DNA of 24,000 nucleotides, taken from assembly GCF_034377285.1 (NCBI RefSeq), contig NZ_CP139715.1, forward strand, positions 4,939,465 through 4,963,464, read 5' to 3'. Made by a program: the position numbers and the translations under genes. Positions within the stretch are counted from its first letter, which is position 1; the number at the start of each line of letters is the position of its first letter. Below are positions 901 through 22,037 of this stretch, piece after piece. Under the pieces are notes generated by a model. It saw nothing but the letters and a program-made list of their open reading frames with translations, ran no database searches and was not told where the DNA came from. The DNA is from Thalassobaculum sp. OXR-137. Its GTDB lineage: Bacteria; Pseudomonadota; Alphaproteobacteria; Thalassobaculales; Thalassobaculaceae.

Positions 901-2592
901 TCAGTCATCGAACAGATCGAGGTCGAGCCCGAAGGGCCGGCCTCTTTCTTTCGTGCGTTCCCGCTCCAGCTGTCGCTTCTTGTGCATGCGCCAAGCCCGC
1001 TCTAACTGCTCTTTCCGATCATCGGCAAGATTGGCGCGTTTGAGCGCTTTCTCGCTCAGCCGCTCCAGGGCACGTGCACGGGCTGCGATCTTGGCAGCCA
1101 GGCGCTTGCGGAGTTCGGCGGGACTGCCTGCGATATTCTGGATGATCTCCAGTTCCCGTACGGCAGCCTTGGTGCGGCGGCGGGCCTGCTCGATTTCATG
1201 ATGGGCCTGCCCGTGTTTGAGGCGCGCGTCGCGGAGCTTCTGGCGGCGCTGCATGATATAGCGGAATGACTTCTTGGCCTCCGCCCGCTCGCGGGTGCGG
1301 TAATCGCCAATCCGCACCCCCTTGATCGCCCCCAACAGGAAGGGGTCTTTTCGGATGGCGTCTTCGGCCTCCTTGATGCCAAGCTTTTTCTCCAACTCAT
1401 CCCAACGAGCGCGGGCCTTGTTCGCATCCTTGTAGACCTTGGCCAGCCCTTCGAGGAAGCTGGCCTCCCGCTTCGTGATCCAACCTGCCTCCCGCTCGGC
1501 CTGTCTGGCATGCCAGACTTCCTGCTGCTCGGCATAGCGGACCCGACCCTTGCGGCTGCGATAGGCGGCCTCGATCTGTATCCAGTAGCGATAATCCATA
1601 TCGGCCTGGTCGGCACGGCGAACGGCATCGCCTTCCGGCGAGGTGTCGATGTCACCCGCGAGCATGCCCTCGACGGTGCGGCGCTCTTCCGGCTCAAGGT
1701 CACTGGTATCGAGGGCCAGCTGTCCCTCCCGGTCGTCGCGAGCGATCTCGGCCGCACGGCTCGACATGAAGTCGTCGAAGCGCTCCCCGAACCGCTCCTC
1801 CAACGTGTTGAACCTTACCCCCTTACCCATGTCGGAGAGCTTGGCAAACCGCTCGCCGTCGGACAGGATCAGGCCCTGCCCCTTGCGCTCCAGGGTGATG
1901 CCCTTCCGGGTCAGGCGATGGTTCAATTCGGCCCAGGTCCGGGACTGGTAAAAATCGTCCTTCAAACGGCGGCGCAGGTCGGCGGTGGCAACCTTGCCAA
2001 GGGGGATGAGCGCTTCCCGCTCTTCCCGCCGCGCCTTCCAATATTCCCCATCGCTGAGCGCGGGCGCGAGGTCATCGACGTCCCGGCCAAGCTGGCGCTC
2101 GTATTCCCGATTGCGCAGGATATTGAGCCCGTGCTCGCGGGCGAGCTCATGGACAATCCCGGTCAGCCGCTTGCCGTCCTGATGGCGGTCATAGGCGACG
2201 TGCTTTTGCGGATGGATACGGTTCACCAGAAAATGCATGTGCGGATGCTCGGTGTCCTGATGGGAATAGACCATGAGCTGGTGCTCGGTCAGGCCCATGC
2301 GCTCGATGACCTGCTGGGCCACCTTGCGCTTCAGCTCCGGCGTCACCTTCCCCGCCGCCGCGTCCTTCGGATCGAAGGTGATCATGAAGTGATAGGCGGG
2401 CTGTTTGCAGCGGACGGATTTGGCGGCAGTCGCCTCCATCACGGAAGACGCGGCACGGGCGTTGTCGGTGAAGAGATTGCGCACCTCGACAAATTCCACA
2501 CGGTCGGGGCTGAGCCCCTTGATCTCGCCTGCGAGGTAAAGGGCGGATGCCCGGAAGCTCTCCGGCTGTCGGCGTGGAACCTTAAAGCGCAT
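901..2592 (-). CDS. Conjugative relaxase (MobA/VirD2-type relaxase/mobilisation nuclease domain) with long coiled, charged C-terminal region
   Basis: The N-terminal domain has HQDTEHPHMHFLVNRI (HxDxxxPHxH relaxase motif III) and an early Tyr (ALYLAGE). Start chosen at ATG 2592, behind a purine-rich GAGGGGGG stretch. It overlaps the mobC stop by 11 nt, which suggests translational coupling. Confidence 0.85.
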   Translation of the reverse strand: MRFKVPRRQPESFRASALYLAGEIKGLSPDRVEFVEVRNLFTDNARAASSVMEATAAKSVRCKQPAYHFMITFDPKDAAAGKVTPELKRKVAQQVIERMGLTEHQLMVYSHQDTEHPHMHFLVNRIHPQKHVAYDRHQDGKRLTGIVHELAREHGLNILRNREYERQLGRDVDDLAPALSDGEYWKARREEREALIPLGKVATADLRRRLKDDFYQSRTWAELNHRLTRKGITLERKGQGLILSDGERFAKLSDMGKGVRFNTLEERFGERFDDFMSSRAAEIARDDREGQLALDTSDLEPEERRTVEGMLAGDIDTSPEGDAVRRADQADMDYRYWIQIEAAYRSRKGRVRYAEQQEVWHARQAEREAGWITKREASFLEGLAKVYKDANKARARWDELEKKLGIKEAEDAIRKDPFLLGAIKGVRIGDYRTRERAEAKKSFRYIMQRRQKLRDARLKHGQAHHEIEQARRRTKAAVRELEIIQNIAGSPAELRKRLAAKIAARARALERLSEKALKRANLADDRKEQLERAWRMHKKRQLERERTKERGRPFGLDLDLFDD

Positions 2593-3151
2593 CCCCGCCC
2601 CCCTCATCGGGGGACGCATCGGTGTCGGGGTCCTCGTCGATCTGGACGGGCTTTTTGGCGACGGCTTTGTGGAGCGGATCGAGCACCCGGCGCATGATGG
2701 TCAGTGTCTCGTCCCGGTCGGCTGGGTCGATCTCCTTGCCCATGTTTGCCCGCCGCGCCATGGCGTTGATCGCATGCCCGATGCCGTTGATGGCCTCGAT
2801 CTCCCGCTCGATCAGCGGAGCCAGATCGAAGCGGTCGGTGACACGGTTGACCAGCTCGCCGCCGACATAATTTGCCCAGGGGCCATAGGTCTCGTCGCCG
2901 GTCGCCTCGGCCAGCTGACCGAGGTTCGTCGCCATTGAAGTCAGCTCGTAAAGCAGCGCGTCCATGACCTTGTCGCGCTGTGGCCTGACCCGTGGTTTGA
3001 TACCGAGCGCACGGCTGCGGACATAGGTGGCGAAGGGCAGTCCGGCGTCGATGGCGTCGCTCTGAATCTTCCGCCACTCGGCCTCGGTCAGGCGGATATA
3101 ACAGACCTTGGTGCGACGCTCTTCAGGAGCCTTGGGACGCCGTCCGGCCAT
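2582..3151 (-). CDS. mobC: Relaxosome accessory protein MobC
   Basis: The pattern IRLTEAEWRKIQSDA ... TNLGQLAEA resembles the MobC family. It lies immediately upstream of, and overlaps, the relaxase. Start ATG 3151 is preceded by GGGGAGG. The longer track ORF (to 3247) has no SD. Confidence 0.75.
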   Translation of the reverse strand: MAGRRPKAPEERRTKVCYIRLTEAEWRKIQSDAIDAGLPFATYVRSRALGIKPRVRPQRDKVMDALLYELTSMATNLGQLAEATGDETYGPWANYVGGELVNRVTDRFDLAPLIEREIEAINGIGHAINAMARRANMGKEIDPADRDETLTIMRRVLDPLHKAVAKKPVQIDEDPDTDASPDEGGGDAL

Positions 3152-3247
3152 GGGGCTATGCCTCCCCTTCCCCAGACGCCTCGCAGAGCAAGAGGGCTGC
3201 GCTTGAGACCCCGCAAGGGGGTCGAATGCCAGGCCTGTTGAACGCAC

Positions 3248-3360
3248 GAAAATACCCGCTGGACGCCCCTCGGGGGCTGTCCGGCAGGGCAGGCCGCAGG
3301 CCGCCCGTCAGGTATTTTTGTCGATCAACATCCATCTTGCCTCCCTCCTGTCGTTCAAAA
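3248..3360 (+). promoter_or_regulatory. Candidate oriT: long inverted repeat followed by a nic-like CTCCTG/T
   Basis: CGAAAATACC (3248-3257) and GGTATTTTTG (3311-3320) form a 9/10 inverted repeat around a GC hairpin (GGACGCCCC..GGGGCTGTCC). A third AAAAATAC copy lies at 3356-3364. CTCCTG|T at 3345-3351 resembles the MOBP/VirD2 ATCCTG nick core. The site lies upstream of the mobC-relaxase operon. Confidence 0.4.
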
Positions 3361-3554
3361 ATACTCCCCCTCTTATGGGGTCGCCCGCCAGTGGGTTAAG
3401 GATTCAAGATTACAGAACAGGCAATTAGCGCCAGAAAATCTCAACAACACTCTACGGTTTTCAGGGTGCGATTGCAAGTGTCAACAAAAGCCAACAGCCA
3501 GCAACAAAGCGGTGAGAGGTGAGGTTCTACGAGTCTGATGGCGGCGACGGACAT

Positions 3555-3578
3555 GCGAAAGCCCCCGTTCTGGGGGCT
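3555..3578 (-). terminator. Rho-independent-like terminator after the 64-aa ORF
   Basis: AGCCCCC (3560-3566) pairs with GGGGGCT (3572-3578) around a 5-nt loop. On the minus strand it is followed by TTTCGC. Confidence 0.5.
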
Positions 3579-3612
3579 GTCAGGTCCTCGTGAAGCGGAT
3601 GCGCGGAGGGGG

Positions 3613-3807
3613 CTAGTAGCCCCATTGTGCGAGCATCTCGACGGCTGAATCTGGATGAACATTGATGGAGTGCCAGAAGCGAATTTCGCCATGGGCACCG
3701 TCGAAGGGGGCGCGGTCGTAGGCCTCGGTAAAGGCTCCGAGAACATATTCGACGTAATGCTGACAGGTCATGTCCCGTACGATCTGGATTGAAGTTGGCT
3801 GGCTCAT
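3613..3807 (-). CDS. Hypothetical small protein (64 aa), leading-region orphan
   Basis: ATG at 3807 is preceded by GAGGAGA at good spacing. The longer track ORFs (to 4128/4192) run through the conserved leader without an SD. No family recognised. Confidence 0.6.
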   Translation of the reverse strand: MSQPTSIQIVRDMTCQHYVEYVLGAFTEAYDRAPFDGAHGEIRFWHSINVHPDSAVEMLAQWGY

Positions 3808-4060
3808 GGTCGGTCTCCTCTTGGGGTTTTTTGGGCCGCACCGTGCGGCCTTCGTGGCCAAGAGTGGGCAACGGCGAAATAGCCTTCCGCACCCGGAGGG
3901 CCGGAACGAAGTGGAGGATGGCAAGGGCCGTCTTTCTTGAAGCGCAGCGACCGCGAGGAATGGCCAGGATCGGGGTCCCCAAGCGACCCGTCGATTGGGG
4001 TGATCGGCCAGGGGAAGAAAGTCGGTTCGCGCCATTGCGGCAGGCGACGCCGATGCCAGA
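3808..4060 (-). promoter_or_regulatory. Conserved structured leader, copy A (contains a ~50-nt expansion hairpin)
   Basis: Alignable with 4633-4875, 7129-7345 and 14373-14585. SD-proximal hairpin GGCCGCA/TGCGGCC at 3834-3850. Blocks GGAGGATGGCAAGG, GTCTTTCTTG, CGCGAGGAA, GGGGAAGAAAGTCGG and GCGCCATTGCGGC are present. Confidence 0.7.
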
Positions 4061-4401
4061 TTGGCCCCAGATCGAAGGCCCGCATCGGTGTGGTTCGTCC
4101 CCAAGGGGATACCGGGCATGGGCGTCACAAAGCCAATTGCGGGACTGGCTCTTCAGGCAGAACGTCATGGGGTGAGACCGAAGTTCGAGCATGCGGCCTT
4201 ACGCCGTTGTCCAGGCACGCCGTTCTTCTGCTCGTCAACGCTCAGCCGTCAAGGTCGTCAGGGTTGGGCAGGTATCTTTGACCGCAACAGCGACGGCATT
4301 CGAAATACTGCGAGCCCGCCAAGGGGACTCGGCGGCAGTGGATGCACAGGATGCCCCGCCGATGTAACGGCGGGGCGCTGCGTCGAAGTGCTGAATGAGG
4401 A

Positions 4402-4632
4402 TCAGGCGGCCATGCGCCAGTCCGTGGCGGGTCGCCTGTGGCGGCGGGCCTCCATCAGGGCGATGGCGCAGCCGATCGGGGTCATGCCGATGTCGAAGGC
4501 GGTGCTGACATCCCGATACTGTTCCTCGGTGAGATCGGCTTCCGCCTCGATCAGGTAGCTGTCCTCCACGGCGATGACGTATTCGTCCCAGCTCATGTCG
4601 AATTGGTTCACGGTGTTGCTCAATCGGGTCAT
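4402..4632 (-). CDS. Hypothetical small acidic protein (76 aa), leading-region orphan
   Basis: ATG at 4632 is preceded by GGAAGGAGGAAAG. The N-terminal ~50 aa are rich in D/E. The longer track ORF (to 4953) overlaps the conserved leader. Confidence 0.6.
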   Translation of the reverse strand: MTRLSNTVNQFDMSWDEYVIAVEDSYLIEAEADLTEEQYRDVSTAFDIGMTPIGCAIALMEARRHRRPATDWRMAA

Positions 4633-4875
4633 GGTCTTTCCTCCTTCCGGTTTGTCCTGGCCGCGACCGCGGCCTTCCATGGGCAACAGAAGGCGGCGGC
4701 ATAGGCGACCGGACGCACCCCAAGAGGCGCGGAGGGGCAAGGCCCCGACCGGGACTTGAAGTGGGCCGGAACGAAGTGGAGGACGGCGAGGACCGTCTTT
4801 CTTGTTTCGCGAGGAAGGTCGAAGACCGGGGAAGAAAGTCGGGCAGCGCCGTTGCGGCGGGAGACGCCGACGCCA
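4633..4875 (-). promoter_or_regulatory. Conserved structured leader, copy B
   Basis: Hairpin GGCCGC/GCGGCC at 4659-4674. TTCCATGGGCAAC block present. Helix GTCTTTCTT (4795-4803) pairs with AAGAAAGTC (4832-4840) and encloses CGCGAGGAA plus hairpin GGTC-GAA-GACC (4817-4827). GCGCCGTTGCGGCG block present. Confidence 0.7.
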
Positions 4876-5063
4876 CGTTTGCCCAATGAGGAAGGCCCGA
4901 CGGTCACGGCCAGCCGGAAGGATGGAAAGCCCCCGATTGAGCATGCCGGTCACCTCGGCAAGCTGGGCACGTCAGCGGGGTTGCTGGTGGACAGGACCAT
5001 AAGTCGAGGAAGCATCACCGAGATCGTATCGGATGCTGCCAGCGCTCAATTGGAGACACGAAC

Positions 5064-5180
5064 ATGGCTTCGCAGAAACCTGACTGGATGGCCCAGCACC
5101 TAATGATACGGAAACGTCGCCAGGTGACCACGCGGCTTCTGCTGCTGCTCTTGCTGGCCTGTTGCATTGCCGCCCTGTAA
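5064..5180 (+). CDS. Possible 38-aa peptide with basic N-terminus and poly-Leu hydrophobic C-terminus
   Basis: Below the track's size cut-off. ATG 5064 lies 7 nt after GGAGA. Translation: MASQKPDWMAQHLMIRKRRQVTTRLLLLLLLACCIAAL*. Lies 100 nt upstream of the ankyrin gene on the same strand. Confidence 0.3.
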   Translation: MASQKPDWMAQHLMIRKRRQVTTRLLLLLLLACCIAAL

Positions 5181-5279
5181 GGCAAGCCGCAGTTGTCACT
5201 GTCAGTCCCTCTCTCGCGCACCTGCGCATAAGGGTTCACGGCTTGAGCCGGAGGGAATTTAACAAAGTGAGACACGTGC

Positions 5280-6191
5280 ATGCTGGATAAGATTTTTGAT
5301 GCGATAGAAGGCAACGACATCGACGAGCTGAAACGCCTTAAGGAGGCAGGCGGGGACTTCACCCTCGCTAACGAGCATGGCCATACGCCAGCGCATTGGG
5401 CGGCGGGGTCTGGCAATCCAGAGGTGGTGCGCGCTGTCCATGAGGCAGGCGGGGACTTCAACCTCGCTAACGATTATGGCCAGACGCCGGTGCATAGGGC
5501 GGCGGGGTCTGGTAATCCCGAGATTGTACGCGCTGTCCACGAGGTTGGTGGAGACTTCGCCGTCGCTGACAAGTATGGCCGGACGCCGGCGCATAGGGCG
5601 GCGGAGATTGGTAATCCCGAGACCGTGCACGCTGTCCATGAGGCGGGCGGGGACTTCACCCTCGCTGACAAGGATGGTGAGACACCGGCGTATACGGCGG
5701 TGGGGTCCGGTAATCCCGAGATCGTGCGCGCTGTCCATGAAGTAGGCGGGGACTTTACACTCGCTGACAAGTATGGCCGGACGCCAGCGCATCGTGCGGC
5801 GGGGTGTTATATTCCAGAGATGGTGCACGCTGTCCATGAGGCGGGCGGGGACTTCACCCTCGCTGACAATAATAGCCGGATGCCGGCATATTGGGCCGTG
5901 GAGTCTGGTAGTCTGAAGATGGTGAGGCTCGTTGAAGATATCGCCAAAGAGCAGGAGGCAGACAAGCTCCAGACGGCGTTACAGGAGCGGCTTCCTCTGC
6001 CTGAGCCAGACCAGACCAACGAAGATTACCATAGGACCCTGAAGCAGAGGCAAGAGGTGGCCCGTGCTGCTCTGCGTGCGGAGACCGAGGCCAAACTTCG
6101 GAATCATGCCCCCTTGCCTGATCTTGGGCATGATGAAATTGACCCGACTGGTAAGGATGAAGATGACCGTAACGGTACCGATCCCAGATAG
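5280..6191 (+). CDS. Ankyrin-repeat protein (six 33-aa repeats) with charged C-terminal tail
   Basis: The unit G(D/N)..TPaHrAAgSGNPEiVrAVHEaGGDF.lAd repeats six times. It is opposite in orientation to the surrounding leading-region genes. Confidence 0.85.
   Translation: MLDKIFDAIEGNDIDELKRLKEAGGDFTLANEHGHTPAHWAAGSGNPEVVRAVHEAGGDFNLANDYGQTPVHRAAGSGNPEIVRAVHEVGGDFAVADKYGRTPAHRAAEIGNPETVHAVHEAGGDFTLADKDGETPAYTAVGSGNPEIVRAVHEVGGDFTLADKYGRTPAHRAAGCYIPEMVHAVHEAGGDFTLADNNSRMPAYWAVESGSLKMVRLVEDIAKEQEADKLQTALQERLPLPEPDQTNEDYHRTLKQRQEVARAALRAETEAKLRNHAPLPDLGHDEIDPTGKDEDDRNGTDPR
5343..5936 (+). repeat. Six tandem 99-bp repeats (coding, ankyrin units)
   Basis: Units start at 5343, 5442, 5541, 5640, 5739 and 5838, an exact 99-bp period. 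Long identical stretches occur, for example GAGGC(A/G)GGCGGGGACTTCACCCTCGCT. Confidence 0.9.
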
Positions 6192-6267
6192 GCACACGTG
6201 GGTCGAGCGCCAGGATTGAGTTACGGAGAAATAGCCCCTGCCGCACGTGCAACAGGGGCCAGCAGGT

Positions 6268-6756
6268 TTAAGCGTAGGGGATCTCCATCGGGTCCTCGCC
6301 GTGCCATGAGGCTTCGGTGATGAAGTAGCCAAGGCGGTTCACCGTATGAAGCCCGCTGAGGATATAGAGGGTGTCATCGTCAGCCTCGATCAGCGTCCAG
6401 ACGCGGGCCAGGTCGGTCGTCCTGACGATCTCGATCTCGGGGCCGAAGGTCTCGAACAGAAGCCCGTCGCAGGGGGCAGTCGGGACCAGTGGATTGGTCG
6501 TCGGGCGGAAAGTCTCGCACCACTCCGTGAAGCTTATCGAGGGCCGCGCTGGGTCGGGGTCGTCTCCGGTGGCAGCGATGGCCTGAAGCGCGAGAGCATG
6601 GCCCGCCGCAATGCCGTCCGCCTCTTTCCATGCGTCCCAGTCATCGGGATCGTCGGTGGCTTCGGCGGCTGCCAGAAGGCGCTCGGCTTCGTCAGTCAGG
6701 CGGGCGGTTTCCGCATGCAGCTTGTTCAGTTGATCGTCGGTCAAAAGTATCATCAT
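6268..6756 (-). CDS. Hypothetical acidic protein (162 aa)
   Basis: ATG 6756 lies 8 nt after AAGGAA; the track start at 6762 is a TTG. Highly D/E-rich. No family recognised with confidence. Confidence 0.65.
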   Translation of the reverse strand: MMILLTDDQLNKLHAETARLTDEAERLLAAAEATDDPDDWDAWKEADGIAAGHALALQAIAATGDDPDPARPSISFTEWCETFRPTTNPLVPTAPCDGLLFETFGPEIEIVRTTDLARVWTLIEADDDTLYILSGLHTVNRLGYFITEASWHGEDPMEIPYA

Positions 6757-6831
6757 GGTCAAAATTCCTTAATAAAAATGTCTTGGGGTTAAGGCCGCCC
6801 GCCGTGGTGGCGGGCGGCGTTGGTGTCGTCC

Positions 6832-7128
6832 CTAGCGGCTCCAGATGAGGGCGAAGCCCTTGTCCTGCTGCTCGACCAGATTGGCGTAGATCGGAGCGGC
6901 GAAGCTCGGGTCGTCCAGCTTGACCGAGATGTACTCGTTGCCGCCCTTGCTGGTGCGGTGCCAGGCCGCGCCGATTTCGACTGCGCCCGCCTTGATGCGG
7001 AAGTCCGGGGCGGTGTCGGCGGTTTTCTCGACGCTGCTCACGGTGACCTTGGTGGCCTTGAGGCCAAGGGTCTGGATGGTGCCGGCGAAGCCGTTGTCGG
7101 TTTTGGTGAAGGTGCCGATGGTTGCCAT
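6832..7128 (-). CDS. DUF736 family protein (98 aa)
   Basis: MATIGTFTKT..GF.G.I.TL....KV......K....APDFRI.AG.VEIGAAW...SK.G.EYISVKLDDPSF.APIYANL matches my recollection of the DUF736 signature. ATG 7128 is preceded by AAGGAG. Confidence 0.8.
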   Translation of the reverse strand: MATIGTFTKTDNGFAGTIQTLGLKATKVTVSSVEKTADTAPDFRIKAGAVEIGAAWHRTSKGGNEYISVKLDDPSFAAPIYANLVEQQDKGFALIWSR

Positions 7129-7345
7129 GGTGATAGTCTCCTTTGTTTGGTGTCTGGGGGTCGCGCCCTTCGCGACCTTTCCATGGCCAATGTCAGAGAC
7201 CGTCAAAGACCGGGCCTGCACCCGCAGGGACGTAACGGAGTGGGAGGACGGCAAGCGGGCTGTTTCTTGTTTCGCGAGGAATGCGGCAAAGCCGCAGGGG
7301 AAGAAACCGACCGTGCGCCGTTGCAGGCGCGGGCGACGGGCTCAA
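7129..7345 (-). promoter_or_regulatory. Conserved structured leader, copy C
   Basis: Hairpin GGTCGCG/CGCGACC at 7159-7177, compensatory relative to copies B and D. Helix CTGTTTCTT (7260-7268) pairs with AAGAAACCG (7301-7309) and encloses CGCGAGGAA plus hairpin TGCGGC-AAA-GCCGCA (7282-7296). Confidence 0.7.
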
Positions 7346-7586
7346 ATGTGGCCATAAAAGGAAAGGACGTGAGGGGATGCGACCGCACCAAACATGTAGA
7401 AGACTCACCATGGCGGCCTCGATCACCGCCCCCGACAAACGGCGGCCAGCGCGCAATCCCCATGGCCTGAATCACCCTATCGCTGGTGAGGCGGCTCAAG
7501 AAAACGCCCGCCCTGGCTGAAGGCCAAGACGGGTTGTAATCGGCAATGGTGGCCGTCACCGTAACAGGCGGCAAACGGTCAAAATC

Positions 7587-10330: not shown

Positions 10331-10760
10331 GTCGGTTTGTCCTTCCGTCGAGTTGTTCAATTCTGCGAAGGACACCCACGCCCCGCGCATGAACCTCTGC
10401 CCAGCGGCGAGCGACGACGACAAACCAGTGACAACAGGGAGAACAGGCGTTCAGGCGGCGAAGCGCCGACATCCGACGGGCTCCAAGAGAGCCGCGCCGC
10501 AAAGCGGCGGCATCCGGCCAACACGGGACCCCCGACTTGATCGGGGGGAACGGAGCGGGCAGGCCGGACGGCGACCTTGGAAAAGACCGGCGGGGTCGGC
10601 ACAAGCTGGACAGAGAGGTTACAAGCGCGAAGCGCAACCCAACAGGTCAACGCCGTCCCGCAGGGACGACATTATGGGGCGTTGCGGGGCATCCCCGCAG
10701 AAGGGGTGACGGAAACGCCGATAGGTGGTTGCAGGCAGGGGAAGGCGTTCCCCGCCTAAA
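10331..10760 (-). other. ~430-nt non-coding, hairpin-dense region upstream of the 75aa-DUF2958-ParB operon
   Basis: At least six short GC hairpins. Examples: GCCGC-AAA-GCGGC, CCCCCGA-CTTGA-TCGGGGG, GCGC-GAA-GCGC, GTCCC-GCA-GGGAC, CGGGG-CAT-CCCCG. There is partial similarity (GGAACGGAGCGGG..GGACGGCGACC..AAGACCGG) to the leader family. Confidence 0.45.
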
Positions 10761-10786
10761 ATTACTACTATTTTTACTATTTTCCC

Positions 10787-10815
10787 TTGTTTTGCGTTTG
10801 GAGAACAGATAGGAT
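10787..10815 (+). promoter_or_regulatory. Candidate sigma70-type promoter of the three-gene cargo operon
   Basis: TTGTTT (10787-10792), a 17-nt spacer, then TAGGAT (10810-10815). It sits in an AT-rich tract with a TACTATTTT direct repeat, about 40 nt upstream of the first ATG. Confidence 0.4.
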
Positions 10816-10855
10816 GACATCAGAATAATCAGCATACGAACGAAAGGACTGCCCC

Positions 10856-11275
10856 ATGCCGGACCTGCGAACCATCGAGATCGACTTCGAAGTACACAAA
10901 ATCATCGAGCTTGAGCGGAAGAGCTTCTCGGAGACCCCAAACGAAGTGCTGCGTCGATTATTGAAGGTGAGTGGAAAGCGCCCCTCACTCCAACCACAGA
11001 AAGCGACAACCGGACGCCCCTGGTCGGGTAAAGGCGTGACGCTGCCACACGGTACAGAACTTCAGATGGATTATAATGGTCGCCAGTACACGGGGGCCAT
11101 CGACAATGGTGAATGGGTTGTTGAAGGTCAGCGGTTCAAGAGCCCGTCCGCTGCGGCTGGTGGTGTCGCTGTGACCAAGAGCGGAAAACATACCAACCTG
11201 GACGGCTGGAACTATTGGCAGGCCAAACGCCCCGGCGATACAGACTGGGTCGCAATAAAGGACATGCGGCGCTAA
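10856..11275 (+). CDS. Small DNA-binding protein: SeqA-N-like ribbon-helix-helix N-terminus + RAMA/DUF4357-like C-terminus
   Basis: RTIEIDFEVHKIIELERKSFSETPNEVLRRLLK aligns by eye with E. coli SeqA residues 2-35 ([33 protein letters not shown]). The C-terminal F.SPSAAAGGV......NLDGWNYW pattern is typical of restriction/methylase-associated RAMA-type domains. AAAGGA SD present. Confidence 0.7.
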   Translation: MPDLRTIEIDFEVHKIIELERKSFSETPNEVLRRLLKVSGKRPSLQPQKATTGRPWSGKGVTLPHGTELQMDYNGRQYTGAIDNGEWVVEGQRFKSPSAAAGGVAVTKSGKHTNLDGWNYWQAKRPGDTDWVAIKDMRR

Positions 11276-11300
11276 AGGCACGCGTCAGGAGAATGAACCC

Positions 11301-12512
11301 GTGGTCGATATAAGCAAGCTGAACAAAGCTGCGCGCGCAGCCCAGAAACTGACCGAGCAGCACCAAGGTACGATCGAGGCGGCGCAACGTATTGCCCACA
11401 GCCCGGCCATGCAGGCCATGAAGGCGCTCCAGGAGAACTCCGCGGTAACTCGATTAATGGCCGATATGGAGCGCCATCAAGCGCTCATTCGTGCCGCACA
11501 AGGGCCATTTGAAGAGTTGCGCAGATCAGGCGTTTTCAACCACGCCTCCGCCCTGCAAGAGCAACTCCGCCCAGTTCGGGAGATAATAGACGCGTTCAAT
11601 GCACGGTTCACCCTGCCGGAGGTGCCCGCCGCGGTGAAGCTCATGCAGGAGTTCCAGCAGAGTCCTGCGGCTGAGGCGATAGCGAGATATGCAACACGGG
11701 CTGACGAGATCCAGCGTGCCATGGAAGCCATGCACACGCCGTGGTTGGATGCGCAAGAGACCCTGCGGTCAGTGACAGGCTTCGCGGAAATACAGGGCAT
11801 TGGCAGAATGCTTGAGAACATGCCTGCCTTTGACGACGCCGTTTGCAAAGCGCTCCGGGTCGATCTTGGCGACTGGCGGGACAAGATTACCTGGCCGGAG
11901 CCGGTGTTGACGGACCTGGTCGCACGTGAGGCCTTTTACGTTGACTTAGGCTTTGACACGTCCCTTACCGACTTCCCGGCCCCGGCGTTTCGAGAAAGCA
12001 CCGAGATCGCCGGCCTGCGACGTGCACCGCCCCCGGTCGTGACCGCCTACGGTGAGCCTATCCCACGCATTGAAACCGATGAGGAAGAGGAAGCATTCAC
12101 CCTGACCAACGTCGCGCACGATTGGCTACAACGTTTTGAGTTCCATCTGAGAAACTTCATCGATGCTCGGATGACTGAAGCTTTTGGCCGAGAGTGGCCG
12201 AAACATCAACTACCGAACGGCGTCTATGATCAGTGGATGGCGAAGCGCGACGCTGCGGTGAAAGCCGGGAGGCAGGCGCTTCAATTGATTGCCTATGCCG
12301 ATTTCACGGACTACGAGCGTGTGATCTGCAAGAAGGATAACTGGCGTCAGGTGTTCCACATCTACTTCGTTCGCCAAGAGAACGTCCGCGAGAGCTTCCA
12401 GCGGCTGCATCCGATCCGCTTAGACACCATGCACGCGCGCCCAATTATTCAGGACGACGAGATACTTCTGTATGTTGAAGTGAAGCGTTTCACTAAAATA
12501 TTTTTTAGCTAA
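11301..12512 (+). CDS. Helical N-terminal domain + C-terminal Swt1-like HEPN domain protein (predicted RNase)
   Basis: GTG start lies 7 nt after AGGAGAA. The C-terminal ~120 aa (FEFHLRNFIDARM..GREW......IAYADFTDYERVI...NW..F...F......F.RLHPIRLDTMHARP) match the Swt1-like HEPN pattern. The Rx4H motif is R373-H378 (nt 12417-12434). Confidence 0.7.
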   Translation: MVDISKLNKAARAAQKLTEQHQGTIEAAQRIAHSPAMQAMKALQENSAVTRLMADMERHQALIRAAQGPFEELRRSGVFNHASALQEQLRPVREIIDAFNARFTLPEVPAAVKLMQEFQQSPAAEAIARYATRADEIQRAMEAMHTPWLDAQETLRSVTGFAEIQGIGRMLENMPAFDDAVCKALRVDLGDWRDKITWPEPVLTDLVAREAFYVDLGFDTSLTDFPAPAFRESTEIAGLRRAPPPVVTAYGEPIPRIETDEEEEAFTLTNVAHDWLQRFEFHLRNFIDARMTEAFGREWPKHQLPNGVYDQWMAKRDAAVKAGRQALQLIAYADFTDYERVICKKDNWRQVFHIYFVRQENVRESFQRLHPIRLDTMHARPIIQDDEILLYVEVKRFTKIFFS

Positions 12513-12523
12513 GGAGTAATTCC

Positions 12524-13396
12524 ATGCAGGATGACGCAAGGTCAGACGATGAAATTCAATTAGCGGCGAGGCATCTCTTCGAAGGTGTTGTGCCAGAACG
12601 CTCTGCTGAGCTGATCGCGCTATGGAAGCAATACCAGCCCAAGTTTCATCTCCTCTCGGATGATGGTCCGGATGGGATGTTTGTCATGGCCGCTGGCCGA
12701 TATCGCGACGTCGCATTCAATCACCGAGCTCTGAGGGCCTTTTGGTTAGCAGCCTTTATCGCGTGGGAAGGCTATCTGCGGGTCCACGAAGTAGCGACGA
12801 ATGGTTCGGCTGATTTCGACCGGTTCGATGACATGGTTAATCTTTTCGCCCGCATACTAGCCGAAGAAGACCCGTCAAGCGTTCCATTGCCGCAAGGCGT
12901 GTCGGAGCCTGGGCATTACACTGATGCGAAGCAATCTCCTCAAGAAAGGGCGGCAGCCGAACTGGCAACCTTTGCCACCGGCTGGGCGTTTCTGCATGAG
13001 ATTAGACATATAAAACACCAGCAGGAAGGTACCGGCGCCGCACCTGATGATCCGGTGGAGAAGCACCACGAGGAAGAGCTGTCGTGCGATGAATATGCAA
13101 CGACTTTCATACTTGATGGTGTCGACCAGTATGCCCAGACCGAAAACGTGGATTCGGAGAAAGTCAGGCAAAAGCGCGAATTGGGCATCTACTTTGCCCA
13201 GTTCGCGATGACCTTAATCGGCGCGGGTTACTGGGACGCGTCGGATACACACCCGGCGATGCAAAAGCGTATAGACGCGACCATTAAGCTAATGGGCGGC
13301 TCAGGGACACGCATGTCTGATGCCGTTGCCCACGCGGCATTTGCAGCCCTTTGGCGTAAATGGCCGGATGCGCCTGGCCCATTTCGGGCCTCATAG
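12524..13396 (+). CDS. HExxH zincin metallopeptidase-like protein (ImmA/IrrE-like arrangement)
   Basis: HEIRH at aa 158-162 (nt 12995-13009) is followed ~20 aa later by EEELSCDEYAT, a possible third ligand or E..A motif. AAGGAG SD overlaps the upstream stop, so the operon is tightly coupled. Confidence 0.65.
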   Translation: MQDDARSDDEIQLAARHLFEGVVPERSAELIALWKQYQPKFHLLSDDGPDGMFVMAAGRYRDVAFNHRALRAFWLAAFIAWEGYLRVHEVATNGSADFDRFDDMVNLFARILAEEDPSSVPLPQGVSEPGHYTDAKQSPQERAAAELATFATGWAFLHEIRHIKHQQEGTGAAPDDPVEKHHEEELSCDEYATTFILDGVDQYAQTENVDSEKVRQKRELGIYFAQFAMTLIGAGYWDASDTHPAMQKRIDATIKLMGGSGTRMSDAVAHAAFAALWRKWPDAPGPFRAS

Positions 13397-13463: not shown

Positions 13464-14372
13464 CTAAGCGGCGGCCTCGGTGATATCGGTGGCTTGCAGC
13501 CCCGCCAAATAGTCGGTCGCCTTGGCGGCCTGACTTGCGGCGGTGAAGATGGCCTTCTTGTCGGCTTTCAGGACCTTCAGCCAGTTGTCGATGTAGGCGG
13601 CATGGTCGGGGCGCGGTTCCAGCGTGATCCCAAGGTCAGCACAGAGGAAGGCAGCGCCCAGCTCGGCCACGAGTTCTTCGACGGCATAGGCGTCATCGCC
13701 GAAACGTTTGCCGAATTCACGGTCGCAGCGCTTGGCACAGCCGGTCCAATGGGTCAGCTCATGAAGCAGAGTGCCATAGTAGCTTTCCGTCGCCGTGCTG
13801 GTTTCCGTGCCCATGAAGCGCTCGCGCTCGGGCATCTGGATGAAGTCATCAGGGAAGCGGTAGAAGGCGCGGTTGCCACCGTGGCGGATATCGACCCCTG
13901 TGGCTGCGATGAAGGCTTCGGCTGCGTCGTGGATTTGCGCCGGGTCTTTCGGTTCCGGCAATGGCGGGGCTTCGAACCCGTCCACCTGATCGGCGTTAAA
14001 GACGTAGCTGGCGCGGGCCATGAGGCGTTTGCCATGTTCGGTCTCGCCGTCGTCCTTCTGCTCTTCCACGTCGAATTCTTTGTAGAAGACCACGAGGCTG
14101 GATTTCTCGCCCTTGCGGACCTGACAGCCCTTGTTCTGCCATTGGCGATAGGTGCCCCAGGTGCCGGTCGAGAAGCCGCGTGCTTGGGCTGAGGCCCAGA
14201 GGCTGACGACGTTGATCCCGCGATAGGCGTTGGTGGTGTCGATGTTGACGGGGCGGTTCAAGCCTTGGCCTGAGCGGTGCCAGGGCATCTGCCAGTCACC
14301 GGCTCCGGCTTCGATGGCGGCGATGATGGTGTTGGTCACTTGGGTGTAAACGTCTTGGCGTTCGGTCTTCAT
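13464..14372 (-). CDS. ardC: ArdC-type antirestriction protein (ssDNA-binding N-domain + zincin HExxH C-domain)
   Basis: N-terminal pattern W..PW......P.N..T...YRGINV..LW, and C-terminal LLHELTHWTG. ATG 14372 is preceded by AAGGAGAG. The track extension to 14567 runs into the conserved leader. Confidence 0.85.
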   Translation of the reverse strand: MKTERQDVYTQVTNTIIAAIEAGAGDWQMPWHRSGQGLNRPVNIDTTNAYRGINVVSLWASAQARGFSTGTWGTYRQWQNKGCQVRKGEKSSLVVFYKEFDVEEQKDDGETEHGKRLMARASYVFNADQVDGFEAPPLPEPKDPAQIHDAAEAFIAATGVDIRHGGNRAFYRFPDDFIQMPERERFMGTETSTATESYYGTLLHELTHWTGCAKRCDREFGKRFGDDAYAVEELVAELGAAFLCADLGITLEPRPDHAAYIDNWLKVLKADKKAIFTAASQAAKATDYLAGLQATDITEAAA

Positions 14373-14585
14373 GGTCTCTCTCCTTGTCTTTGCGGGCCGC
14401 GCCCATCGCGGCCGTCCGATGGCGACCGGAAAGGCAGGGGCAAAGACGAGCGGCGCACCCGGCACGGGCCGGAGAGAAACGAAGGACGGAGAGCGGGCTG
14501 TTTCTTGCCTCGCGAGGAATGACCAAAGGTCAGGGGATGAAACTGACTGGGAACCGTTGCGCGGCACGGCGTCCCTGCCAGGTCA
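14373..14585 (-). promoter_or_regulatory. Conserved structured leader, copy D (upstream of ardC)
   Basis: Hairpin GGCCGCG/CGCGGCC at 14395-14413. Blocks GGACGGAGAGCGGGCTGTTTCTTGCCTCGCGAGGAA present. Hairpin TGACC-AAA-GGTCA at 14520-14532. Blocks GGGGATGAAACTG and AACCGTTGCGCGGC present. Confidence 0.7.
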
Positions 14586-14873
14586 AGCCAGATATGAGGA
14601 CGGCTCGTGGGCAGCGGTCAGCGACAAGGGCAAGTGAGGCCGGAAGATCAACCCGTAGACGCGGCCCCAAAACGACAACGCCCCCGCGATAGAGGACGGG
14701 GCCGTTGCTTCAGAGATTAATGCACTGGCGTGCGCATCGAAGGCTTATGGACCGCGCCAAAATCCGGCACCTGACAGCCTTCAACGGGCATCTTGTCTGC
14801 CGTTGGGGCAAGCCGCCACAAAATCTAGGCAAACGGCGCAAACCGGGCTAAAAATGGCAGATGGAATCTGTAT

Positions 14874-16916
14874 TTGAGGCTGCAAGGGCAATCGTGGATG
14901 GTCTTCGGAAAACTGTTCGGACGTGGAGGGAATGAGAAGAAGCCACGTCGGCAGACCGAGGATGAGCACTATCGTGCCTGGCGAGAAAGTCTCGATCCCG
15001 AGTGGAACGAGGTTCTCAACATCGTTTTCAAGTCGGAAGACGTCGACCGGGTCTTCAAATCGAGCCTTCAGGTCGCACTCAGCAACAGCGATCTCGATGA
15101 GGCGCGTCGGATTCTTCGCCTGCACATCATGCCGTGCCTGCCGGCACACATTAGGGACCACATCAAGCACGCCGGGCAGCATCAGGCGTGGGCGCACGTC
15201 AATCAGATAGCTGCTGCTGGCGCCTCCTTTGCGCCTGACAAGGTGCCGCACGATGCCTTGAACCTCGGCTGGGTCGAATTCGGTGATGACGGCATGGCGC
15301 AAATACGATTTCAGGGAGAAGGTCACCTGCTGACCGTTGCTCCCACGGGTGCGGGTAAGGGCCGCCGGTTCATCATACGCAATCTGCTGGAGTATGCAGG
15401 CCCCGTGGTGGTGTTCGACCCGAAGGGCGAAAACTATGAGCACACGGCATGGCGGCGCAGCCTGTATGGTCAGGTGTTCAAATGGGCACCCGGTGAAGCC
15501 GATTCCGACTGCTATAACCCGATGGATTTCGTCGAAACGCTGGACGATGCGCGGGTGCTCGCCGACCTGCTCATTGTGCGGATGAGCGCACAGGAGTTCT
15601 GGGATGAATCTGCCACCGATCTGCTCACCGGCCTGATCAGCTATGTGAAGCAGACCAAACCGCCCGAGCGCCAGAATTTGCGCCAGGTCATCAGTGAGTT
15701 GTCAGGTTCGGAAGACGACTTCAAGGCCATGCTCGTAACCTTGCGGGCGACAAAGCGGCGGGACAATGTCGAGCTTGCCAATGTGCTTGAACAGCAATTT
15801 GACAAGATGCGCACGTCAATATCACAAACATTGCGGACGCACCTATCGGCATGGAAGCAGGAAAATGTGGTAAGGACCACGTCCACCACAACGCCGGGCT
15901 TCTCCATGGCGGACATCGTCGGAAACGACTACAACGGCGCCCAGTTCGCCGCCATGGAAGAACGGGCACCGGGCTGGCAGCTCATTGGCGAAAGCGGCCT
16001 CGCCAGAGGCGCGGCGGCGTCGGTATTCATTTCCGTGCAAAGCCACGAAATCCCGACGATGCGTTCCGTGCTCAGGGTCATTCTCGGGCAGATGCTGAAC
16101 GAGTCGATCAAGGCACGGGCCGCGATCGACAAGGCGATGGCGGATGAAGAGGACCTGCCCAAGCGCTTCCCGCACTGGCCGGTCATGTATCTCTTCGATG
16201 AGCTGCCGCAGTTGGGTTACATGCCCCTGATCGAAAACGCCGTGGCGATTGCGCGGGGCTACAATATCCGCCTTTGGCTGTTTACCCAGGATCTGGCGCA
16301 GCTGAGTGAGGTCTATCCCAAGTGGCGCAGCATCGTCGCCAACTGCCGCAGCCAGATATATTTCAAGCCCAATGATCCGACCACAGCAGAAGAGATTGCC
16401 AGCCGTCTTGGACGGCGCAAGGACATCTGGGGCGGTGAGGACTGGGTGGCCTCGCCACAACGTCTGATGAGCCGGGAGTTCTGGGAGGACGCCGTCATAT
16501 TTCAGGACGGCCTGTCGATACGGGCGCATCTGCACAAGCTCTTTGGGGCCGACCAGAGACTTGAAGAGTGGATGGAGGAGCAGAAGGCCATGTTTGGCGA
16601 TACGGTTCATCGGGCACCTCCGGCACCCGAACCGCCTGATCTGACCTTTATCGACGAAATGGAGCCTGTAGCGGAAGCCGCGCCCGCAATCTCCGAACCC
16701 TCAAAAAAGAAAAGCCCCGAAAAAGGGAATGCCGACGGTCGGGATTATTCCGAATACAAAGGCGAATACGCCGCCCTTCGGACCAAGGCGAAAACCAGAA
16801 AGCAGAACCAGACAAACAAGGCCAATCCAGAGACTGCCGAACAGGTGCCTGAGAGGCCAGTAGAATCATCCGACGAACCAAAGGGCAGACCTATGCCGCC
16901 GACGTTCGACGAATGA
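14874..16916 (+). CDS. Second TraG/VirD4-like coupling-protein ATPase paralogue, no obvious N-terminal transmembrane segment
   Basis: Walker A APTGAGKG. LYLFDELPQLGYM...IRLWLFTQDLAQLSEVYPKWRSIVANC parallels the ORF at 2-898. The first ~130 aa are hydrophilic. The track start is TTG 14874; an in-frame ATG at 14898 is an alternative. Confidence 0.8.
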   Translation: MRLQGQSWMVFGKLFGRGGNEKKPRRQTEDEHYRAWRESLDPEWNEVLNIVFKSEDVDRVFKSSLQVALSNSDLDEARRILRLHIMPCLPAHIRDHIKHAGQHQAWAHVNQIAAAGASFAPDKVPHDALNLGWVEFGDDGMAQIRFQGEGHLLTVAPTGAGKGRRFIIRNLLEYAGPVVVFDPKGENYEHTAWRRSLYGQVFKWAPGEADSDCYNPMDFVETLDDARVLADLLIVRMSAQEFWDESATDLLTGLISYVKQTKPPERQNLRQVISELSGSEDDFKAMLVTLRATKRRDNVELANVLEQQFDKMRTSISQTLRTHLSAWKQENVVRTTSTTTPGFSMADIVGNDYNGAQFAAMEERAPGWQLIGESGLARGAAASVFISVQSHEIPTMRSVLRVILGQMLNESIKARAAIDKAMADEEDLPKRFPHWPVMYLFDELPQLGYMPLIENAVAIARGYNIRLWLFTQDLAQLSEVYPKWRSIVANCRSQIYFKPNDPTTAEEIASRLGRRKDIWGGEDWVASPQRLMSREFWEDAVIFQDGLSIRAHLHKLFGADQRLEEWMEEQKAMFGDTVHRAPPAPEPPDLTFIDEMEPVAEAAPAISEPSKKKSPEKGNADGRDYSEYKGEYAALRTKAKTRKQNQTNKANPETAEQVPERPVESSDEPKGRPMPPTFDE

Positions 16917-17182: not shown

Positions 17183-17445
17183 TTATCCACAAGCCGAAAT
17201 CGCGAAATCGCGTTTTTATAAGTTTTAAATAGGTTTTAATAAGTTTTAGGGGTCGAAAATCGACCTCTAAACAAGGCTGGTTGCGGGTTCCAAAGTATAC
17301 AATGTCCGCAATCTCCACTTTTTTGTCCGCAATCTCCACTCGAATGTCCGCAATCTCCACTTTTTTGTCCGCAATCTCCACCGGACTGCACTTGTAGAAC
17401 CGACATTATCCACATTCGGTTGGATCATAGTGGAGATTGCGGACA
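17183..17445. other. Iteron-type vegetative origin (oriV): DnaA box - AT-rich tract - 4 iterons - DnaA box - inverted iteron
   Basis: Perfect TTATCCACA at 17183-17191 and 17406-17414. AT-rich 17214-17252 carries three (A/T)AAGTTTTA-like repeats. Iterons at 17303-17381. An inverted iteron copy lies at 17430-17445, 10 nt from the repA stop. Confidence 0.8.
17303..17381 (+). repeat. Four direct 16-bp iterons TGTCCGCAATCTCCAC at exact 21-bp spacing
   Basis: Copies at 17303-17318, 17324-17339, 17345-17360 and 17366-17381. Confidence 0.9.
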
Positions 17446-17455
17446 ATTGTTATGT

Positions 17456-18439
17456 CTAACCCGTCAGGATTTGGGGACGGCAACGCATGCAAAGCTGTGG
17501 CCCTTCGATGCCAGAAACTTCATAGAGCTCATATCCGGGGAGAGCGTTGTCAGCGATCAGAGCACGTAGATCATGCGTGAATTTGTTCAAGGGGCGCGTC
17601 GATCCGCTTCGCGTGTGAACGGATGCAAAGGAATAGATAGCCTCGTTTTTGCCTGCCGCCTTGCGAGCAAGGCGGTAGACAAACCGCGCCAGGCCTTTCT
17701 TCAACAGGAAGTAATCCGGATCAACGGTCAAAACCTCCGGATTGGTGTGCATGGTCACTGCGTCGTACATCCAGTCGGGGATGATGATCTCGACGGTCCC
17801 GATCCTCCCGGTATCCGTCTTGGAAATAACATCCGCACCTGCGATGAGAGGAAAGTAGCCTGTACGACGGGACTTTTTAGCGCCTGTGTTCTGAGCTATT
17901 TCAATGAATGTACCTTGAAGGCGGCGCAGCGCCTCTGCCAACATGTCGTAAGAGCAACCGCCTCTGGAGACACGGCAGAACTTGAAAATTTCGACGCTGC
18001 TGGGACGAAAGAACTTCGCCGGTTTGGGCACTCGGCCTTGCCGATATAGGCGTGTCTGCTCCGCTAGATGGCTGACCATCATCAACACGATGTCATAGTC
18101 CATGATCGTCGCCATGCCATGGGCACCACCGGCCACGGTGATCGTAACGCCGGGCAGCTCGTGTCGAATGATGTCGCCTTTGCGTGTCTGGCTTTTGGCC
18201 AGACGGAAGACGGCGATGTCCATCAGGTCGAGACCGTCCTTGATCGGGACGTCCTGAATCGTCGGGACAAAGAAATCGGGCTGGTTGTCGTTTGCAGGCG
18301 GCTTGCGAAATACGCCAGTGGCCTTCGCAACAGCATCTCCGGGTCCGATGTCCAGAATATCGCCAAGAGAGCCTAGGCGCTTCCGCAGGCTGGCATCTCG
18401 CACTGAAGCCGTATCCGACGTTTTCTTGGGTGCGCTCAT
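17456..18439 (-). CDS. repA: Replication initiator protein A (RepA, RPA family of alphaproteobacterial plasmids/ICEs)
   Basis: DFFVP...D.P.KD..D.M....F.L.K......I.HE..GV.I.V.....GMATI.DYDI.L pattern, adjacent to the iterons. Its start overlaps the upstream gene's stop (ATGA). Confidence 0.85.
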   Translation of the reverse strand: MSAPKKTSDTASVRDASLRKRLGSLGDILDIGPGDAVAKATGVFRKPPANDNQPDFFVPTIQDVPIKDGLDLMDIAVFRLAKSQTRKGDIIRHELPGVTITVAGGAHGMATIMDYDIVLMMVSHLAEQTRLYRQGRVPKPAKFFRPSSVEIFKFCRVSRGGCSYDMLAEALRRLQGTFIEIAQNTGAKKSRRTGYFPLIAGADVISKTDTGRIGTVEIIIPDWMYDAVTMHTNPEVLTVDPDYFLLKKGLARFVYRLARKAAGKNEAIYSFASVHTRSGSTRPLNKFTHDLRALIADNALPGYELYEVSGIEGPQLCMRCRPQILTG

Positions 18440-20601: not shown

Positions 20602-20685
20602 CAGCACAATGCCTCAGAGAGATGTGCCACGGCGCAGCGGAGGACAGGTAACGAAGAAGGAATCATTCCAGAATTCTCCGACGAA

Positions 20686-21657: not shown

Positions 21658-21975
21658 GGCGAATTTCCCGGATGTTAGAGGGGAACGCCGTGAAGGCGCC
21701 TTTGGTTATCGTGTTACTGCATTTTAATGTTATTTGTTTGAAATAACAAAATATTAGCTAAGAAAATACGAAGACGATCAAGTCGGATTTCGATCTCGGT
21801 GGTCGGCGGCAGTTCATAGGCAGCCCCCAGGTGAACGGGTGCCGGTAGTGTCGCTGGATGCAATCGGAACAAGGCGCAATCTGATAGTCGATCTGTTGAC
21901 CGATGATCAGGACCCTTTGTTGGCTGTGATGGAAACAAGTGGGGAGCAACTGCCCCTAAAGTGCCCCTGAACAGC

Positions 21976-22008
21976 AAAAAGCCCCGATCCGAAGATCGAG
22001 GCTTTTTT
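21976..22008. terminator. Bidirectional rho-independent terminator just 3' of the tRNA fragment
   Basis: AAAAA, then GCCCCGATC (21981-21989), CGAA loop, GATCGAGGC (21994-22002), then TTTTTT. The stem pairs at 8/9 bp. Confidence 0.7.
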
Positions 22009-22037
22009 GTTTTTTGCTGTATTATCAGCTAGATAGT

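Follow-up and report, generated by a model that had tools for sequence, protein, structure and literature searches.

Giant hairpins upstream of ardC, DUF736 and two small genes of an alphaproteobacterial integrative conjugative element: candidate single-stranded DNA promoters

What can be the function of one repeated, structured sequence that stands in front of four unrelated genes? The question is raised by a 24,000-nucleotide (nt) stretch of Thalassobaculum sp. OXR-137 (contig NZ_CP139715.1, positions 4,939,465 to 4,963,464; hereafter the window), which we read as part of an alphaproteobacterial integrative conjugative element (ICE). Its - strand carries, in the order of transcription, ardC, a DUF2958/ParB-like operon, a DUF736 gene, an open reading frame (ORF) of 76 aa, another of 64 aa, a NikA-like gene and a MOBP-type relaxase gene. 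Copies of the element precede the 64-aa ORF (copy A), the 76-aa ORF (copy B), DUF736 (copy C) and ardC (copy D). The best explanation, to which we give a probability slightly above one half (about 0.55), is that each copy is a promoter of the Frpo/ssi type, active in single-stranded DNA (ssDNA) on the transferred strand of the ICE, and that it belongs to a new sequence class.

The four copies and the conservation of their fold

The original prediction had recognised four alignable regions on the - strand, with shared sequence blocks and an expansion in copy A, and all of these were recovered. The repeat search of the window gave one family (D2) with members at 3898-3958, 4763-4823, 7228-7288 and 14466-14526 (67-74% identity) and one pair (D5) at 4011-4082 and 4828-4899 (79% identity). 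An nhmmer profile of the element matched the window at full length four times and no more, always on the - strand, at 7136-7430, 4637-4918, 3814-4107 and 14376-14627. This profile had the copies of the window in its seed, and the independent support is that of BLAST searches with copies B and C against plasmids: the apical ~100 nt of copy B matched 268 records and copy C matched 111, almost all of them in unannotated intergenic DNA of Agrobacterium, Rhizobium, Bradyrhizobium, Sinorhizobium, Mesorhizobium and their relatives.

Folding of the ~300 nt upstream of each start codon gave one long imperfect hairpin per copy, at the base of which the Shine-Dalgarno (SD) region pairs with a segment ~270 nt further upstream. 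The element had been delimited at 210-250 nt, which proved too short, given that each copy extends ~50-60 nt further upstream and makes a hairpin of ~270-300 nt. The idea of a structure-conserving functional element stood, while the three local helices used to describe it gave way to a single hairpin joining the SD region to the far arm. Copy A (3811..4114, + strand), directly 5' of the 64-aa ORF (3613..3807, - strand), has a DNA fold of -82.3 kcal/mol (z -4.9 against shuffles) and contains the apical expansion of ~50 nt at 3961-4011, seen both in the sequence and in the alignment. Copy B (4633..4931, + strand; -89.4 kcal/mol, z -5.5) lies 5' of the 76-aa ORF (4402..4632, - strand), and copy C (7129..7409, + strand; -88.3 kcal/mol, z -7.3) lies 5' of the DUF736 gene (6832..7128, - strand; PF05284, E 1.7e-33). 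The weakest of the four is copy D (14373..14641, + strand; -71.5 kcal/mol, z -1.8), located 5' of ardC (13464..14372, - strand), whose product combines an ArdcN domain (PF08401, E 6.5e-41) with a zincin metallopeptidase domain (PF18818, E 2.8e-53). Neither of the small ORFs, which we call p64 and p76, had a match in Pfam or NCBIfam.

The most conserved part of the element is its apical core, an A/T duplex (CTTTCTT/AAGAAAG) that in copy B is formed by 4797-4803 and 4832-4838 of the + strand and encloses CGCGAGGAA and a variable hairpin (4797..4838). The equivalent duplexes of the + strand are located at 3932-3938/4015-4021 (copy A), 7262-7268/7301-7307 (copy C) and 14500-14506/14537-14543 (copy D), and the core helix shows compensatory changes (CG/GC/UA). 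Near the SD there is a second conserved part, a GC hairpin (GGCCGCG/CGCGGCC at 4659..4674 of the + strand in copy B, with equivalents at 3834-3850, 7159-7177 and 14395-14413), whose closing pair covaries (CG:32 / UA:19). It was also possible to see two optional inserts. Copy B has a GC hairpin module of ~45 nt that includes AGAGGCGCGGAGGGGCAAAGCCCCGACCGGGAC, at 4719-4762, which is found at the same junction in the DUF736 leaders of the related loci L001, L007, L008, L010 and L017 and in the p64 leader of L006; the other insert, GAGCGCAGCG, comes after CTTG. That different paralogue families have optional modules in common suggests exchange between copies.

The distribution of the element was studied in 79 related loci fetched through DUF736, one of which, an uncultured Alphaproteobacteria metagenome-assembled genome (L001), codes for a DUF736 protein identical to that of the window. 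The same giant hairpin was present in the 330 nt upstream of DUF736 in nearly all loci of Rhodospirillales and Rhizobiales, down to 48% protein identity, and nearly all the DUF736 leaders of L001-L071 fold like copy C; in the low-GC loci of Hyphomonadaceae it was not obvious. The profile search of the 79 loci yielded 130 true copies (117 unique), and every one is directly 5' of DUF736 (72), ardC (32), p76 (17) or p64 (9), so that a copy precedes each of the 17 p76 and 9 p64 homologues. Matches in reverse orientation were only palindromic self-matches. In every subgroup the median span of the hairpin is 272-283 nt, and its first paired base lies 1-11 nt from the ATG in the 89 anchored copies. 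The prediction that the element is repeated before unrelated genes was thus borne out.

We evaluated whether the structure is under selection with 69 distinct homologous cores (alignment A2) and a hand-drawn structure of five helices. The cells of the core were paired in 88.3% of cases, against 76.2% in shuffles and 36-52% with the partners slid, and changes on both sides were found in 23 of the 33 core pairs. The covariation score was 0.284 vs 0.108, and none of 500 shuffles came up to the former value. The three covarying helices proposed before were confirmed on these cores and two more were added. Since the outer arms are not alignable between paralogues, they were compared by duplex energy, pairing each near arm with cognate and non-cognate far arms. 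With its own far arm the near arm gave -28 to -35 kcal/mol and with those of other families -16 to -25 kcal/mol; non-cognate pairs as good as the cognate one were 95 of 1574. Compensatory change therefore maintains the hairpin in its entirety, also where it covers the ribosome-binding site of each gene. Two other approaches were set aside: a global MAFFT alignment of the 117 copies was too gappy for a consensus fold, and RNAalifold on full DUF736 leaders recovered the core helices only.

The strand that folds and a promoter-like motif

A structure conserved in this way may act in the mRNA or in one of the DNA strands. The raw energy of the strands was discarded as evidence: the + strand was the more stable in 72/72 leaders, and shuffles attribute ~6 kcal/mol of this to base composition. 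The sense strand folds well too (z -4.3 and -6.2). A count of 1x1 mismatches in folds limited to Watson-Crick pairs was also replaced, because folds of the sense strand led to 54:8 and folds of the template strand to 40:32, and the procedure was therefore not strand-symmetric. In its place each sequence was aligned to its own reverse complement, and isolated mismatches with two Watson-Crick pairs on each side were considered. In this symmetric alignment the template strand (+ in the window) had 136 G·T vs 48 A·C mismatches in the stem, where composition predicts 1.01:1, a moderate bias in copies that are not phylogenetically independent. It was present in DUF736, p64 and ardC leaders. The 29 well-supported core pairs gave 66 G·T vs 19 A·C on the same strand, and one pair of columns (164:259 of alignment A1) was G·T on the template strand, and would be C·A in RNA, in 60/61 DUF736 leaders. 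This bias speaks for a fold in the template DNA strand rather than in the mRNA.

On the 3' arm of the same strand there is a bipartite motif, which became visible when the copies were aligned on the conserved CCGTTGC. It begins with a -35-like hexamer, TTGCGG, located in copy B at 4852..4857 of the + strand inside the conserved block CCGTTGCGG, with equivalents on the + strand at 4035-4040 (copy A), 7321-7326 (copy C, TTGCAG) and 14557-14562 (copy D, TTGCGC), and it is conserved in 89 of the 117 unique copies. In partition-function folds TTGCGG has a mean paired probability of 0.77-0.99, its partners across a junction being CCGCA and GACGG. After a poorly conserved, GC-rich spacer of exactly 16 nt comes the -10-like hexamer C-A-g-n-T-n, which is CACGTT at 4874..4879 in copy B (+ strand, unpaired A at 4875), CAGATT at 4057-4062 in copy A (A 4058), CAAATG at 7343-7348 in copy C (A 7344) and CAGGTC at 14579-14584 in copy D (A 14580). 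Its A stands at a constant distance from the first T of TTGC (offset 23), is present in 48/48 copies of the window type and has a paired probability of 0.11, the lowest of the 80-nt profile. There is another unpaired zone, at 33-38 nt from the start of the -35-like hexamer, where the +1 of a sigma-70-type promoter would fall, and the A/T duplex is ~14 nt to the loop side of that hexamer, roughly in the position of an UP element. Other candidates were rejected for lack of conservation across paralogues: TTGCCC or TTGGCC as -35, the A/T bulge as -10, duplex promoters of the sense strand, and CTTGTT of the + strand. The promoter-like signature of this arm is suggestive only; like the mismatch bias, the motif is in favour of the template DNA strand as the one that folds.

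From the predicted +1 (~3855, 4680, 7183 and 14419, - strand) the four window copies would give leaders of 47-55 nt, each of which opens with the SD-proximal GC stem-loop. In this predicted short RNA the pairing probability of the SD is 0.26-0.33, vs 0.72-1.00 in the full-leader RNA. The SD being free in the former and buried in the latter, the inverted repeat could therefore be a promoter in ssDNA and a translational lock in read-through RNA.

Taking these results together with those on transfer given below, the following mechanism is proposed. The + strand would enter the recipient single-stranded, and each inverted repeat of ~280 nt would fold into a long imperfect hairpin, the 3' arm of which would serve as a surrogate non-template strand. 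From loop to base this arm would present the A/T duplex AAGAAAG/CTTTCTT, the paired TTGCGG, the mostly paired 16-nt spacer, CAnnTn and the +1 bulge, with the A of CAnnTn unpaired as if already flipped for sigma. The RNA polymerase of the host would start at the +1 bulge and read the 5' arm as template, and the short mRNA would have a leader of 43-55 nt, with the GC stem-loop at its 5' end and the ribosome-binding site free. In this manner ArdC, DUF736 and the two small proteins might be expressed before the complementary strand is made. The promoter would be lost once the DNA is double-stranded, and in any RNA that reads through, the full hairpin would form again, with the ribosome-binding site hidden in it.

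The main rival to this reading is that the element is an RNA leader in a long mRNA, in which the 5' arm of the hairpin pairs with the SD and blocks translation, or in which the duplex serves for RNase III processing or for stabilisation between cistrons. Several observations are accounted for by it. The SD, and often the AUG, is inside the basal stem with the pairing probability of 0.72-1.00 just given, the fold of the sense strand is good, the covariation of the helices is equally explained by RNA, and the single orientation of all the genes would allow a polycistronic transcript. Against it stand the mismatches, which favour wobble pairs on the opposite strand (136:48 and 66:19) and in columns 164:259 would leave a C·A in the RNA of nearly all DUF736 leaders; the structured leader of the original prediction is upheld only in part. 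Furthermore, the bipartite motif with its unpaired A has no obvious role in RNA, and terminator-like hairpins are located just upstream of copies C and D. None of the 4227 models of Rfam matched the window at gathering score, and with E<=10 the region 3600-7500 gave only microRNA and snoRNA noise, with no match to the radC motif that had been proposed for comparison; the absence of a named family thus agreed with what had been anticipated. Considering all this, we judge the RNA leader unlikely as the only function of the element, although masking of the ribosome-binding site in RNA may be compatible with an ssDNA promoter as a second layer of control.

Transfer polarity, known ssDNA promoters and other explanations

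The polarity of transfer was approached through the relaxase loci. A relaxase was detectable in ~44 loci, of which ~16 have the NikA/MOBP type of the window and ~28 a Ti-type TraA. In every one of them the genes that carry the element share the strand of the relaxase gene and lie upstream of it and of the oriT, and in the Ti-type loci traC-traD-traG stand between those genes and traA. The layout of the F plasmid is the same: leading genes, then the oriT (origin of transfer), then the tra genes, in one orientation. In the window the NikA-like accessory gene and the MOBP-type relaxase (901..3340, - strand; PF03432, PF21983) are downstream of the four genes and co-oriented with them; the NikA-like ORF probably starts near 3337 instead of at the listed GTG at 3247. 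A putative oriT is located at ~3340-3600, just upstream of the NikA-like gene, on the basis of intergenic features conserved in L001-L018. Its part from 3340 to 3500 has lower GC, GTTG-rich repeats and an CCCCATAAGAGGGG hairpin, features that leave the strand of the nick unfixed.

The Ti-type locus L081 is more explicit. There the strand antisense to traA, DUF736 and ardC carries the inverted repeat of an oriT with CTGCGCCCTT after it, and the two together we take to resemble the nick region of RSF1010. The inverted repeat of an oriT is normally 5' of the nick on the transferred strand, and its orientation in L081 would therefore make the transferred strand the template of the genes that carry the element. 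The oriT of Ti-type systems has been described as RSF1010-related and located between traA and traC (PMC4700958). Because the nick site was not found in the window, we infer there that the + strand is the transferred one and that the four copies lie in the leading region in which the original prediction had placed them.

ssDNA promoters have been described in IncF and IncI1 plasmids, in three sequence classes, with one promoter per leading-region operon and with a second role as replication roadblock (PMC11541004, PMC12672017, 10.64898/2026.01.09.698686). For pESBL and F it has been documented that the same leading region has several of them, one for each operon (PMC12672017; 10.64898/2026.01.09.698686). 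They have so far been mapped experimentally only in IncF/IncI plasmids, where they turn on anti-defence genes within minutes of entry (PMC11541004, PMC12672017). Frpo and ssi1-3 are the class 1 promoters of IncF and IncI1 (Masai and Arai 1997, as cited in PMC7690428 and PMC11541004), and the order that the figure legend of PMC11541004, together with PMC7690428, gives for Frpo is apex, A/T segment, -35, -10, +1 and base.

The element resembles this class in several aspects. It forms the imperfect stem-loop of ~300 nt of Frpo-type promoters (the Frpo region upstream of ssb in F, folded alike, gave ~315 nt and z -6.3), and in both systems the hairpin is attributed to the transferred strand. Several copies stand in one leading region, a presumed one in the window, before establishment or anti-defence operons (ssb, psiB and ardA there; ardC and DUF736 here), the transferred strand is the template there and, by our reading, in the window, and the arm that runs from loop to base carries -35-like and -10-like elements with an A/T-rich segment near the apex. 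The published -35 and -10 of F Frpo could not be assigned in the F fold from sequence alone. In contrast to Frpo and ssi1-3, the element is GC-rich, showed no sequence similarity in the comparison with F and is found in alphaproteobacterial hosts. Its base extends as far as the start codon, with the ribosome-binding site buried in it, while in F ~50 nt separate the end of the hairpin from ssb. The -35-like hexamer of the element is paired across a multi-helix junction, and both hexamers are far from the consensus. What distinguishes it is thus the GC-richness, the junction-spanning -35-like hexamer, a conserved A that is left unpaired and the burial of the ribosome-binding site.

The class 2 and 3 promoters of pESBL and F, upstream of klcA, ardA and M.EcoGIX, were likewise discovered through a large stem-loop before every leading-region operon, and they are sequence-unrelated classes of hairpins in which the copies before different genes resemble each other (PMC12672017). 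Their starts were mapped by 5' rapid amplification of cDNA ends in transconjugants of another host clade (PMC12672017), whereas the element is known from sequence and, as far as the comparison with F goes, is not related to them. The radC motif and other Rfam motifs are also conserved structured elements near antirestriction or DNA-metabolism genes of mobile elements; the radC motif, apart from giving no match, differs in size and architecture. In the early mRNA of phage T7 there are RNase III processing hairpins between genes. These too are long, imperfect, just 5' of early anti-host genes and able to affect access to the ribosome-binding site; they act in RNA, while the wobble bias of the element favours the DNA template strand. 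A search of the literature available found no paper linking DUF736, ardC leaders or Rhizobiales plasmids to ssDNA promoters or hairpins. Because of this, and of the lack of an Rfam match and of similarity to F, we consider the element probably Frpo-type in function and new in sequence; by this comparison, the best reading is that it works like an Frpo-type promoter outside any known sequence class.

A number of observations weigh against this reading. With regard to the fold, copy D only marginally beats its shuffles, and the raw energy advantage of the + strand is mostly base composition. The strand bias varies with the method (54:8, 40:32 and 136:48), is absent in p76 leaders (13:13), and could have an alternative source in strand-specific deamination. 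As for the motif, the hexamers were picked by inspection after several alternatives had been examined, and their matches to TTGACA/TATAAT are poor (3/6 for the -35-like and 1-3/6 for the -10-like hexamer); in Rhizobiales the conserved A is kept in only 31/40 DUF736 copies and the distance from TTGC to the bulge is ~20 nt longer. No nick site was found in 3250-3620 of the window, where an ATCCTG-type motif is missing. Finally, neither the nhmmer profile of the element against positions 52000-68000 of F nor blastn of the same F region against the window gave matches, a comparison that covers the F plasmid only.

A wider claim can be built on the ssDNA promoter, and we hold it more tentatively, as possible but rather doubtful in its entirety. 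The element would be an undescribed GC-rich class of ssDNA promoter with its -11 adenine already unpaired, a switch of two states, promoter and mask of the ribosome-binding site, that limits ArdC, DUF736 and the two small proteins to the time of entry, and it would occur widely, both among alphaproteobacterial ICEs and among Ti, symbiosis and other rhizobial plasmids. The family is spread over hundreds of plasmids of Agrobacterium, Rhizobium, Bradyrhizobium and Mesorhizobium and over marine ICEs. If it is indeed a distinct family of ssDNA promoters, the strategy of the ssDNA promoter would be general and would have arisen more than once, DUF736 and the two uncharacterised small proteins would be early establishment or anti-defence factors alongside ArdC, and there would be a signature of sequence and structure for leading regions and for the polarity of transfer where the oriT is unknown.

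It is also conceivable that the hairpin acts in the transferred strand in a role other than that of promoter: it could prime the complementary strand, delay as a roadblock the conversion to duplex, or be the place where a transferred protein such as ArdC or the ParB-like one is loaded. The evidence on structure and strand is the same for this as for a promoter. Frpo transcripts prime DNA synthesis in vitro (PMC7690428), and synthesis of the complementary strand is stalled by the F ssDNA promoter ssp2 where the stem of this promoter ends (10.64898/2026.01.09.698686). The fixed distance of 1-11 nt to the start codon and the gene of the same orientation after every copy point, on the contrary, to gene expression, and in known systems the priming and roadblock roles coexist with promoter activity. 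As a separate explanation we find it improbable.

Somewhat less probable still is a repeated promoter or operator module that acts in double-stranded DNA, possibly as a cruciform, and places the establishment regulon under a common repressor, in the manner of ArdK/StbA of R388 or KorA/KorB of RP4. Repeated operators are common in plasmid backbones, as in the regulation of IncW and IncP, and the highly conserved blocks GGAACGAAGTGGAGGACGGC, CGCGAGGAA and CCGTTGCGG do recur before several operons. An operator, nevertheless, has no need of ~130 base pairs of paralogue-specific complementarity that reach into the ribosome-binding site, nor would recognition in the duplex lead one to expect covariation and strand-biased wobble pairs. 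A simple scan upstream of the four genes found no sigma-70-type duplex promoter above chance, and the element accompanies two unrelated transfer systems.

A mobile or selfish palindromic repeat, intergenic by chance, of the kind of a miniature inverted-repeat transposable element (MITE), repetitive extragenic palindrome (REP) or RIME, is very improbable, since to the long palindrome, the several copies per replicon and the optional modules common to different paralogue families one has to oppose that the copies are not at dispersed unrelated sites with common ends, that 130/130 are directly 5' of four gene families in one orientation, that reverse-orientation matches are only palindromic self-matches, and that the complementary outer arms are gene-specific and include the ribosome-binding site of each gene, which argues against shared ends.

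Other features of the window

Between the leading genes of the - strand there is an ORF of 303 aa in the opposite orientation (5280-6191, + strand). It contains an array of a 99-nt tandem repeat (5343-5924; 5.9 copies, 79% matches) that encodes units of 33 aa, ankyrin-like by eye only; an overlapping ORF of the - strand (5259-5837) looks spurious. Three further genes of the + strand (10856-13396), which interrupt the series between ardC and the DUF2958/ParB operon, have the look of cargo of the defence type: RAMA-like, Swt1-like HEPN and Peptidase U49 (Lit-like), the matches being weak and, except for the last, below the Pfam cut-offs. Their orientation would not be readable from the transferred strand. 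Upstream of the operon that encodes a 106-aa protein, DUF2958 and ParB, the region 10424-10860 (+ strand) is structured in comparison with shuffles (z -4.1) and multibranched. It was rejected as a further copy, given that its sequence is unrelated to the four copies and its fold is not that of one hairpin; an element of another kind is conceivable.

Elsewhere, the window codes for a type IV (T4) coupling protein, RepA, ParA and a tyrosine recombinase. Just upstream of the RepA gene (17456-18439; PF10134) there are four tandem direct repeats of 21 nt, AATGTCCGCAATCTCCACTTT, at 17301-17384, with mutual identities of 81-95%, which are probably iterons. Beyond the ParA/RepA module, the region 19795-23387 contains BacA (undecaprenyl-diphosphatase), a CorA transporter and the tyrosine recombinase, and no tRNA gene was found in the window; this end is consistent with an ICE that has cargo near one of its ends. 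At the left edge, an ORF of the + strand (29-898) has a stretch of 61 nt with 70% identity in common with the coupling-protein (TraG) gene (14874-16916, + strand), and from this resemblance in sequence it may be a second gene of the coupling-protein type downstream of the relaxase.

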